Sequence record: PV659873.1
Direction: 5' to 3' (one strand)
Source: Escherichia phage WPEC1
Length of the DNA: 64,000 bases
The notes under the pieces were generated by a model, which was given only the letters and a program-made list of their open reading frames with translations, was not told the origin of the DNA and did not search any database. Positions 46,449 through 49,400 of this stretch are shown one piece after another (position 1 is the stretch's first letter; each line of letters begins with the position of its first letter). Position numbers and translations under genes: made by a program.

Positions 46449-49400
46449 CTAGTGACAGGACGCCCAGGAATTACCCACATCGTATCCGGCAGTAAGCTGA
46501 ACGTTAAGATTGTAAAATTCTCCAGCCTTGGTAACAGCTAAAGCGGCAAGTTCACCTGCCCGACTATAGGCTGTAAACCATCCACCTTTGGGAGATTCAT
46601 GAATGTTAGCCCAAATTTGCCCTGTCTCTTTTTCCTTATTATGCTTCCATTCTTCGACTTTAGCAAGGCATTCTTTATCAATTTTCTTTTGTTCTTCAGG
46701 ATCGTCTACTTTCTTCCAACCTAATGATTCCGGTGAAAACCATTTGAATTCTACAAGGTTACGAGAAACTTCAAGCTGGGCTTCATCGTGATATGCAATC
46801 ATTTGTTGCACGAAGTCTTTATTCTTCCAGTCATCTTTAAAGAAGTCAACACTTAGCCCTTCTTCTTCGATCATGTCATCATAAATAACCATTGCACGTT
46901 TAGCACAGATAACCCCACCGCTTTGGAACAGAGAGTTAAGAATCGCGTGAGCAGAACGAGTAGGAACCTTACGACCGTCAATACCCAAAACATATTGTTT
47001 ACCAGTCTTAACCCAGAAATCGTTTAAACGTTCTTTAAGACGCGCCAATGGGAATGCAGCTTCCCAGAAAGCATCGAACACCAATTGACCTGTAAACTTG
47101 TCGCTACCAATTGTTTTAGCAACCTTGTCGGCTTGTGCACCATAGGTAATACCATACTTAACAGATTTAGCAGGACTACGTTCAAATTTACGTCCAATAG
47201 TTTCAGTGATACGTTTTGCCATCATTGTGTGAACATCATTAGGTTTCTCTAACAACAGAGCGTTACAATATTCGTGTGGCTCCGGCTCGTACCGCCAACA
47301 GTTTCCTGTGATGGTAATGCAGTCTTTCTGACGCATGACCCACGTACCAAGTTCTGTTTGTGGACACCAAACATCCTCTACACCCCACTCTTCAATAGTC
47401 AAACTTTGAACAGGAATGTGAGAGCGGTTAGTCAATGTTGCCACTTTTACTTTCTGCTCTTTTGTATTGAAAGCTACAGAGATATTGCCTCCATGCACCA
47501 GGTACGAGGCAGTTAAAGCTGCTTCAAAAAGTTCACCTGGGTTCTGCGCCCAACGCCAAACAGGTTTTTGTTTATGTTCGTGCCAGTAACCATCTGCAAT
47601 CAAGAAACCTTCCAAGAAAGCTACACGCTCGGCATGAGACATATTGACTACACGTTCTACCCACGGAACATCCCATTTACCTTGTTGAACAGAAGTTAAA
47701 CTATTTACCTGATCTTGTTCCATGTTAAATGGAGCATTACAAATAATGTTATCTCCTGTGCAAAGCTCGGCAGTTGTTCTGACTTTAGGCACATAAGTAT
47801 TCCCTTTACTACGGGTATTAACATACCAACGGTGATCTGCTGTTGCACGGTAAGTGTGTGATTTCCCTTTAATCTCAAACGTCTTACTATTTTTATAGAA
47901 GACCTTACCTTTTACTTTAGTCCATTCTTTCAGACCTGTTTCAGCATTGTACCCTAAAATCTCATCCCCTTCCTTCAGGTCGTGATATCCTACCCAACCT
48001 TTACGAGTCAAAGCTTGAGCATCCATCGGCACACAGTAATGCGATTCAATTTTTGCTTCCAAAGAGTCGAAGTCGTAGCCGATCTGGAAGTATTTAGGAA
48101 CCTCTACACCAAACAAGTTACGCATCTCCCATCCAAACAAAGATGTGACACGAGGAATATTAGCTACAGATCTATGTTTCATACGAGAGGTTGCAGCATC
48201 ACATGTAGCGGCTGGGGTAGGAATACGACCATCCGCCCTTACTGCGGCTAAGAAACCTTTATCGTATTCTTGATCTTCTTCATCTTCTTCCCAATCAGCA
48301 CCACCACCTAAAATAGAGTTCCTACGATGCTTATACGTTAAGTATTCTACAATCTGTGTAGCATAAGGAAATTTCTCACCCAAAGCTTGCAGGTTAGGAC
48401 AAATTTCTTTTTCCTGACCTTTGGTAAAACATGGGTTAGTCAATACTTTAAGACCGCGACCTTTACCTTTTGCTATACGCTCTTGAATCTTCCTTTCCAA
48501 GGTTTCCGGTGTGCACTCCAGATGATCACAACGGTCCTGACAAAAATTAGAAGATAGAGTTTGCTCAACGTAAGCTCGAATACCTTTCTGAAGTTCTTCC
48601 TCACTCTTTTTAATCTTTGTGCCAGATTTAAGCGTCAAGTCTTTATCTTTATATTCAGACGGTACCCAACCTAATCCTACAAGCCAGTTTTTAATATGGG
48701 TAGTATCGTTCAATGTTGCAGGGATATTAGGATCACACAAAGGCTCATCTGCTGCAACTGGCAGTTTCCACTCTTTCCCCAACATCACTAACCACCAATC
48801 CCCATCCCTCTCTTCCAAATGACCATCATGTTTCTTAGCAAAATTGATCATATGGTTAGTTGGCTCTAAGTTCTTTTTAATTTGCAACTTAGGTGGAATA
48901 AAAGCCTTAAGATAACCTTTTGTTGCTGGTTTAGGTGGCAAAATAGGCTCAACGAGTAAACGAAGACGCTCCATTTCTGCATCCAAAAAAGCAAGGTTCT
49001 CTTCTGCTTGCTTCATGTTAAAAGCAAATCCACGGTGTTCCTGGCGTGTAATAATGTCTGCTACACGTTGTTCAAGTTCAAACGGACCTTCCCATTTATC
49101 ATAATCACCCCATTCTTCCATAAGGTAATTATATACACTCGTGTTGGCTTTGTTGTCATAGATACAGTAATAAAGCATATCCGCAGCAAAAGTCTTAAAG
49201 CGATCTTCTTCTGGAATTTCTTTACGAAAATCTATTTTTACATCACCACCTGCCTTTCGAGAAAGTGCTGCCAAGCTATGTCCTGATTTGCCCTCAATCT
49301 TTCGATCTGGGTTTAACACTTTACTCAAAATCAGGGAGTCAATAAGTTTTACCTTATTTTTGCCCCACGTGTTATATTTAACACTGTAATCTAATCCATA

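Follow-up and report, generated by a model that had tools for sequence, protein, structure and literature searches.

The window analysed here is a stretch of 64,000 nucleotides from Escherichia phage WPEC1 (sequence record PV659873.1). Its minus strand carries a gene for a family A DNA polymerase that resembles gp5 of phage T7, and a block of 245 extra codons lies in frame between polymerase motifs A and B of this gene. With a probability of roughly 90%, this segment is a bona fide intein, i.e., a selfish in-frame protein-splicing element. The host gene is the sole recognisable replicative polymerase gene of the region. Its 1110-residue product is 100% identical to the coding sequence (CDS) named "DNA polymerase I" in the Escherichia phages WPEC4, WPEC2, and WPEC6, the WPEC4 record giving this product name only, and it is 95–98.5% identical to the polymerases of many members of Phapecoctavirus (subfamily Stephanstirmvirinae). 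The Pfam family DNA_pol_A is found on the precursor with an E-value of 2e-11, split over two stretches. In the following lists, a slash within a motif marks an insertion junction and amino acids are abbreviated as aa.

46449..49781, minus strand: open reading frame of the DNA polymerase precursor, 1110 aa, family A, T7 gp5-like, GTG start (from the list of open reading frames)
48036..49781, minus strand: N-extein, polymerase residues 1–582, with the C-terminal end ...GYDFDSLEAKIESHY (from the T7 gp5 and empty-allele alignments)
48048-48080, minus strand: motif A, GYDFDSLEAKI, inside the N-extein (translation)
47301..48035, minus strand: intein, 245 aa, Cys1 ... Gly244-Asn245 (polymerase residues 583–827)
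46449..47300, minus strand: C-extein, polymerase residues 828–1110 plus the stop codon (from the T7 gp5 and empty-allele alignments)
47298-47300, minus strand: Cys+1, the first C-extein residue (translation)
47139-47180, minus strand: motif B, RSPAKSVKYGITYG, inside the C-extein (translation)

In translation, polymerase residues 583–827 read CVPMD...CITITGN and are followed by Cys. The insertion point lies between Tyr582 and Cys828, 11 residues past the acidic residues of motif A and 40 residues before motif B; in terms of T7 gp5, this is H-F/M-A, directly after motif A (GIDASGLELR). When the window gene was aligned at the DNA level with the 865-aa gene of the intein-free phage Schickermooser, the two were separated by one 735-bp gap and 60 scattered substitutions. 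Since the gap is single and exact, the insert proposed in the original prediction is real, and its boundaries are precise. In megablast, 33 phage records span the whole gene, and many others match 78% in two pieces and span 735 bp less. The search for an empty site in related phages had been set beforehand as a test of the insertion, and such sites exist: 10 of the 10 intein-free alleles aligned, from Phapecoctavirus and Justusliebigvirus, read ...IESHY/CWRYE.... The intein-free protein matches T7 DNA polymerase residues 399–658 in one piece (E 2.5e-23; DvHtmm pairs with T7 DiHtkn) and shows a single Pfam DNA_pol_A stretch (504–764), compared with two in the precursor. Removal of the insert restores the normal spacing of motifs A and B as well as a contiguous match to gp5, so the assignment to the T7 gp5-like polymerases holds.

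The pentanucleotide ACTGT is present at both junctions (48033-48037 and 47298-47302, minus strand; TAC/TGT and AAC/TGT). Therefore, the boundary is ambiguous at the DNA level by up to 5 nt, which corresponds to one codon in frame. Other kinds of insertion were considered. The continuous reading frame, with no Rfam match and no tRNAs in the window, rules out both a group I intron and a separate gene for an endonuclease, and a lineage-specific polymerase domain is rejected because empty alleles exist. The name "DNA polymerase, part I" in the phages outra and muut was also considered as a sign of a further split; the gene is intact there, and the name was copied from a pVOG match.

Standard profiles do not by themselves decide what the insert is. 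Searched alone, it reached an E-value of 0.007 with the Pfam family Intein_splicing (16.6 bits against a cut-off of 35.8) and 0.15 with LAGLIDADG_3, no NCBIfam model matched, and phmmer against PDB sequences gave weak matches only (E 0.07–0.9). Because the Pfam result is marginal and the NCBIfam search empty, it is the empty alleles, the profile of the family, and the predicted structure that carry the proof of an intein. Nine relatives were collected in a first search and 574 by a profile search, 124 of which were read. The profile of this family matches the solved inteins NrdJ-1 (E 8e-5) and DnaX (E 2e-4) over block B. In the profile test proposed in the original prediction, the ready-made Hint and LAGLIDADG models stayed below threshold, and the family profile reached solved inteins. 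An AlphaFold2 model of the intein was built on 39 sequences, with a predicted local distance difference test (pLDDT) score of 92 and a predicted template modelling (pTM) score of 0.88. When this model was compared with the PDB by Foldseek, all significant matches were inteins, bacterial intein-like domains, or Hedgehog. The predicted structure contains a Hint fold, into which a further domain is inserted.

47724..48035, minus strand: N-terminal part of the Hint fold, intein aa 1–104, with Cys1 of block A; beta-rich in the model
47826-47843, minus strand: block B, T65-A-D-H68-R-W70 (TADHRW), with T65, H68, and W70 nearly invariant in the family
47424..47723, minus strand: inserted domain, intein aa 105–204, one LAGLIDADG half-domain (AlphaFold2 model)
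47589-47615, minus strand: motif LEGFLIADG (translation)
47301..47423, minus strand: C-terminal part of the Hint fold, intein aa 205–245, including Cys224 (F:4), Thr243 (G:5), Gly244, and Asn245
47301-47372, minus strand: blocks F and G, VWCPQTELGTWVMRQKDCITITGN (translation)

The Hint signature that had been read from the sequence was confirmed: Cys1, Thr65 (block B T-x-x-H), His68, Asn245, and Cys+1 are all present within the predicted fold, and the +1 nucleophile is nearly invariant in the family. The strings quoted earlier (motif A, motif B, TADHRW, LEGFLIADG, and the two ends) were all recovered in place by translation. Across homologues of 26–36% identity, C1, T65, H68, W70, C224, T243, G244, and N245 are nearly invariant, and the nearly invariant C-terminal columns of the family comprise V222, W223, C224, P225, T227, W232, Q236, T241, I242, T243, G244, and N245. 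The window intein and the intein of phage phi92 differ by 53 synonymous and 6 non-synonymous changes, which gives a ratio of non-synonymous to synonymous substitution rates (dN/dS) of 0.023; for the Hint part, the ratio is 0.015.

The family to which the intein belongs is large. It has at least 574 relatives, most of them at one site, FDVYP/SAYANG; the phage proteins that contain this site are uncharacterised, and DUF5661, PF19846, or PF19197 is present in some of them. More than 100 metagenomic phage proteins (P0002–P0124) carry a single-motif intein at this site, and all of those read end in TITGN followed by Ser. Single-motif inteins of ~245 aa seem to be widespread in phage metagenomes. 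Relatives are also found in motif B of other family A polymerases, namely those of Pseudomonas phages KIL1–5 (KDGKT/CNYA) and the metagenomic proteins P0121 and P0009 (AKAH/TFAPLYG). In Pseudomonas phage vB_PsyM_KIL1 (L023, NC_030934), the polymerase CDS is annotated, intron-like, as a two-piece join around a related 331-aa intein (KDGKT/C...TITGN/CNYA). P0121, with a two-motif intein of 328 aa, and P0009, with one of ~142 aa and no endonuclease, share a common extein; P0002 (245 aa) and P0005 have near-identical exteins, and the mini-inteins of these two pairs measure ~142–163 aa. Both pairs show the loss of the endonuclease domain.

The distribution of the intein in sister phages is patchy. 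Among ~123 Stephanstirmvirinae polymerase records, ~34 contain the window-type intein, 12 contain a second intein located in motif B, and the rest have neither; none of these records contains both. The window-type intein is shared by Phapecoctavirus, Justusliebigvirus, and a more distant phage, Klebsiella phage KP13-16, and it is present or absent among phages that are otherwise 95–98% identical. Within Phapecoctavirus, the intein shows 1–4 synonymous differences, compared with 33–48 in the flanking 448 codons (dS 0.006–0.026 vs. 0.13–0.19; Fisher p ~1e-5 to 3e-6; extein dS and dN/dS values come from a protein-guided codon alignment). Between the two genera, dS is 0.45 for the intein and 1.45 for the extein. 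The nearest flank differences stand at −10 and +8 of the junctions, in alleles that are 6–13% diverged locally. The intein of phage ESCO32 is a clean chimera: nt 1–180 are of the phi92 type (25/25 informative sites) and nt 186–735 are of the Phapecoctavirus type (32/34), yet it lies within a Justusliebigvirus gene, and the downstream flank is again of the Justusliebigvirus type by the first marker at +17. This pattern indicates recombination between intein copies of two genera. Taken with the divergence data, it shows a recent and precise movement of the window intein across diverged polymerase alleles and across two genera, which may have come about either by means of its own endonuclease or through recombination during co-infection.

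In several Justusliebigvirus genomes, the polymerase gene is followed directly downstream by a free-standing gene for an HNH endonuclease (L006:4115-4711, L015:2400-2996, L017:2400-2996). It is absent in phi92, cut to a 123-bp open reading frame in outra, and absent from the window. This gene is another present-or-absent selfish element at the polymerase locus.

The second intein site is vacant in the window, as established by protein and DNA alignments and a tblastn survey.

47148..47153, minus strand: vacant second intein site, between Gly877 and Ile878 of motif B

In the phages nepoznato (L005:2501-3472), ukendt, nieznany, AV126, and phiWec187 (L021), as well as in four records labelled as Campylobacter phages, this site is filled by a 324-aa intein with two LAGLIDADG motifs. 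It lies 50 residues downstream of the window intein site, at KSVKYG/CTYG (T7 G527/F528 in the O-helix), with a +1 Cys in place of the Ile of empty alleles. The two inteins are homologous, with 32% identity over the full length, a common CVP.D start, a VW/FC block F, and a T.TGN/C end; they differ in that the window intein has one LAGLIDADG motif instead of two. Between nepoznato (Phapecoctavirus) and phiWec187 (Justusliebigvirus), this two-motif intein is 99.9% identical. These two phages also agree at 61 informative flank sites in a row, which run from −67 to +161 (228 bp) when counted from the first site. The shared tract is only 74% identical to either genus, and each genome returns to its own sequence by −79 and +170. 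The 228 bp are a textbook co-conversion tract that came from a third lineage. The tract alters the first intein site to ESHY/TWRYDNPDHAY. The four Campylobacter-phage-labelled records, MG065639, MG065645, MG065656, and MG065689 (named Campylobacter phage A150, A145, C3, and A110a), are 146 kb long and have a Justusliebigvirus-like polymerase; their motif-B intein is 99.7% identical to that of E. coli phages, and the host label looks doubtful.

The domain inserted into the Hint fold of the window intein (aa 105–204) is predicted to have the order alpha-beta-beta-alpha-beta-beta, with a helix that ends in LEGFLIADG. Exactly one LAGLIDADG motif is present, as had been claimed, and the two half-domains of the PI-SceI type are not found. 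The half-domain is the counterpart of the second half of the 324-aa intein of nepoznato, the first half being absent, and by structural comparison its placement relative to the Hint fold matches that in PI-SceI, PI-PfuI, and TliVMA. Between the window and phi92, this middle domain differs by 16 synonymous and 3 non-synonymous changes (dN/dS 0.04). In 34 non-redundant family members (~30% identity), Lys120, Trp125, Asp148, Gly149, Gln164, and Leu179 are invariant; Asp148-Gly149 form the acidic C-terminal end of the LAGLIDADG helix, and Gln164 stands at the end of strand 2. Of the 124 family members read, 116 have the single-motif build, with a length of 237–263 aa. The endonuclease domain is thus under strong purifying selection and not decaying. 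LAGLIDADG enzymes need two half-domains, so any activity of this single one would require dimerisation.

Several observations weigh against the intein reading or against movement by its own endonuclease. Besides the sub-threshold Pfam score and the empty NCBIfam search, there is only one LAGLIDADG motif for mobility. The target site is not pseudo-palindromic, as the best half-site match near the junction is 4–5/9, a level reached in 86–100% of background windows. The flank comparison reveals no co-conversion tract beyond the −1 codon for the window intein. The 5-bp ACTGT direct repeat could in principle permit exact deletion by microhomology without an endonuclease. With regard to splicing, the penultimate His and the block F His (F:13) are both absent, the penultimate residue being Gly244, and the records and literature searched report no splicing product for the window phage or any sister phage.

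These points bear differently on the fate of the half-domain. The reading that comes closest to an even bet is that the splicing part is functional and the half-domain is the dead remnant of a two-motif homing endonuclease. Homing would then have been lost, and the patchiness would reflect homologous recombination in co-infection together with occasional precise loss. Relatives within the same polymerase family do have two motifs and 324–328 aa (nepoznato, P0121), P0009, P0005, and P0008 are without the whole domain, as the homing cycle predicts, and the ACTGT repeats offer a route to precise deletion. The target that is not pseudo-palindromic is in line with such a remnant, as is the lack of visible co-conversion, which contrasts with the 228-bp tract of the two-motif intein. 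However, a dead remnant is hard to reconcile with the strongly purifying selection on the middle domain and with a single-motif build shared by most members at ~30% identity with the six residues invariant. Undirected recombination also explains poorly the sharply bounded island of low divergence, with differences resuming 8–10 nt from the junctions, and the crossing of the intein between genera whose flanks are only 80% identical.

A homodimer is the less favoured alternative. Two inteins or precursors would pair through their helices in the manner of I-CreI, and the half-domain would thereby act as a homing endonuclease that cuts the empty site; this is possible but on the unlikely side. The invariant putative active-site residues and the selection on the domain speak for it, and the half-domain is complete and sits on the Hint fold as in the known enzymes. 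The spread was recent and exactly bounded, with an inter-genus chimera, and the target from −12 to +16 is conserved between genera except at wobble positions. Against it stand the half-site matches at background level, the missing co-conversion tract, and the lack of precedent: neither a single-motif LAGLIDADG intein nor a homodimeric intein endonuclease was found in the literature searched, which is not proof of absence. It is somewhat more doubtful still that the half-domain, working as a homing endonuclease only on the dimerisation of two inteins or precursors, represents the first homodimeric intein-encoded endonuclease and founds a large, hitherto unrecognised family of ~245-aa single-motif inteins.

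The splicing of the intein can be discussed separately from its mobility. The original prediction had correctly noted the penultimate Gly and had therefore left splicing competence in doubt. A penultimate His is common in inteins but not obligatory. In this family, Gly is nearly invariant at this position: in 116 of 116 full-length members that were read, the sequence closes with T-I/V-T-G-N or something very similar. In addition, the intein of the mycobacteriophage Bethlehem recombination directionality factor (RDF), with Gly as its penultimate residue, splices fully, and a Gly-to-His change slows it (Kelley et al. 2016, PMC5050341). Because of the family-wide Gly and this precedent, the doubt is largely removed. 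Judging from their records, intein-bearing phages (phi92, ESCO5, PaulScherrer, and others) are plaque-forming isolates, which implies a working polymerase. Splicing is very likely, given the conserved Gly, the Bethlehem intein, the Hint dN/dS of 0.015, and the viable isolates. The precursor would be translated as 1110 aa and its Hint domain would fold. Then, Cys1, or possibly Cys224 of block F, would attack the carbonyl of Tyr582, the N-extein would be transferred to Cys+1, and Asn245 would cyclise, which would release an 865-aa polymerase and a free 245-aa intein. If splicing is required, the replication of these therapeutic-candidate coliphages would depend on protein splicing, which would provide an extra point of regulation or vulnerability.

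The intein contains the triplet Trp70 (B:12), Cys224 (F:4), and Thr243 (G:5), with Cys224 21 residues ahead of the terminal Asn245. A Trp-Cys-Thr (WCT) triplet defines class 3 inteins (PMC2807308, PMC7891396, PMC5222942). Cys1 is kept in at least 90% of the family, although class 3 inteins have no Ser, Thr, or Cys at position 1. Because this N-terminal nucleophile is present, the intein is not class 3 by the published definition; its residues combine class 1 nucleophiles with the class 3 triplet. Three WCT inteins starting with Ser1 or Cys1 were listed as unresolved by Tori et al. (PMC2807308). It is conceivable, albeit rather improbable, that a class 3 route is followed, in which Cys224 makes the first branched thioester and Cys1 is dispensable. 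The triplet is at the canonical positions, and the 21-residue distance from Cys224 to the terminal Asn recurs in the DnaB inteins Msm, Mle, and Mch, which are of class 3 (PMC5222942, PMC7664689). Nevertheless, the near-invariance of Cys1 in the family suggests that it is needed, the class is defined by the missing N-terminal nucleophile (PMC2807308), an F:4 Cys is also found in class 1 inteins (PMC4031507), and the +1 residue is Cys here, not the usual Ser or Thr of class 3.

The weakest alternative, a polymerase that tolerates a non-splicing 245-residue domain between motifs A and B, could draw on the absence of direct splicing evidence and of both assisting histidines, but it is highly improbable, as all splice-junction residues are conserved, the Hint part has the low dN/dS given above, identical polymerases function without the insert, the insert falls within the catalytic core directly after motif A, and members of the intein family occupy single conserved sites in unrelated proteins, which fits a splicing element and not a polymerase accessory domain.

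Although correct, the finding is not a new one, since the intein is of a known kind and the record of a sister phage already annotates it. GenBank record MZ501100 (Escherichia phage PaulScherrer, Bas60, BASEL collection, 2021) describes an "intein-containing DNA polymerase precursor" and marks both the polymerase and the intein as mat_peptide, and PQ821640 (phage SD2) uses the same product name. The mat_peptide for the PaulScherrer intein (L004:2504-3238) is placed one codon downstream, from Val2 to Cys+1, and the chemistry needs Cys1 to Asn245 (L004:2501-3235); owing to the ACTGT repeat, the DNA comparison allows this shift, but the chemistry does not. In the BASEL paper, inteins were identified by comparative annotation (PMC8594841). 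No paper that describes the window-type polymerase intein was found in the literature searched, and a 2024 paper states that no inteins had been reported in coliphages (PMC11162368); therefore, the GenBank annotations have not yet entered the literature. The original prediction missed these annotations in sister phages, the WCT triplet, the recent mobility, and the second intein in motif B.

No report was found of this single-motif endonuclease domain, which keeps Asp148, Gly149, and Gln164 invariant and is subject to strong purifying selection. The same applies to the class 3 Trp-Cys-Thr triplet together with Cys1, and to the two-motif relative that lies, with its clean co-conversion tract, in motif B of sister phages. 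What interest remains attaches to three hypotheses, which concern the conserved single-motif domain, the coexistence of WCT and Cys1, and a natural three-allele system. Near-isogenic, culturable E. coli phages carry three natural alleles: empty, with a single-motif intein after motif A, and with a two-motif intein in motif B. This set is a convenient system for studies on intein homing, co-conversion, and fitness cost. It could show if a single-motif LAGLIDADG domain drives homing, and whether a WCT intein with Cys1 follows the class 1 or the class 3 route.

Among known systems, the closest is the intein of PaulScherrer and SD2. It occupies the same site (ESHY/C...GN/CWRYE), has the same length of 245 aa, and is 97.6% identical to the window intein in amino acids and 92% in nucleotides. 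These phages belong to Justusliebigvirus, and their exteins are ~88% (protein) and 80% (DNA) identical to those of the window over the region compared. The homing inteins PI-SceI, PI-PfuI, PI-PkoII, and TliVMA have two LAGLIDADG half-domains per chain, often with an extra DNA-recognition region, and are monomeric, whereas the window intein has the second half only. The class 3 inteins MP-Be DnaB, Msm and Mch DnaB-1, and AceL NrdHF resemble the window intein in having WCT at B:12, F:4, and G:5, and the triplet is spaced alike in all of them. The best structural match among mini-inteins is AceL NrdHF, which, like the window intein, is without His at F:13 and G:6 (PMC7891396, PMC2807308). Class 3 inteins differ in that they have no N-terminal nucleophile and usually a +1 Ser or Thr, while the window intein has a conserved Cys1 and, in the polymerase copies, Cys+1. 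The Bethlehem gp51 (RDF) intein, a class 1 intein, resembles the window intein in coming from a phage and in having Cys1 and, as its penultimate residue, Gly (PMC5050341); it differs in residing in another host protein, in its larger size, and in an endonuclease that is toxic and hence active.

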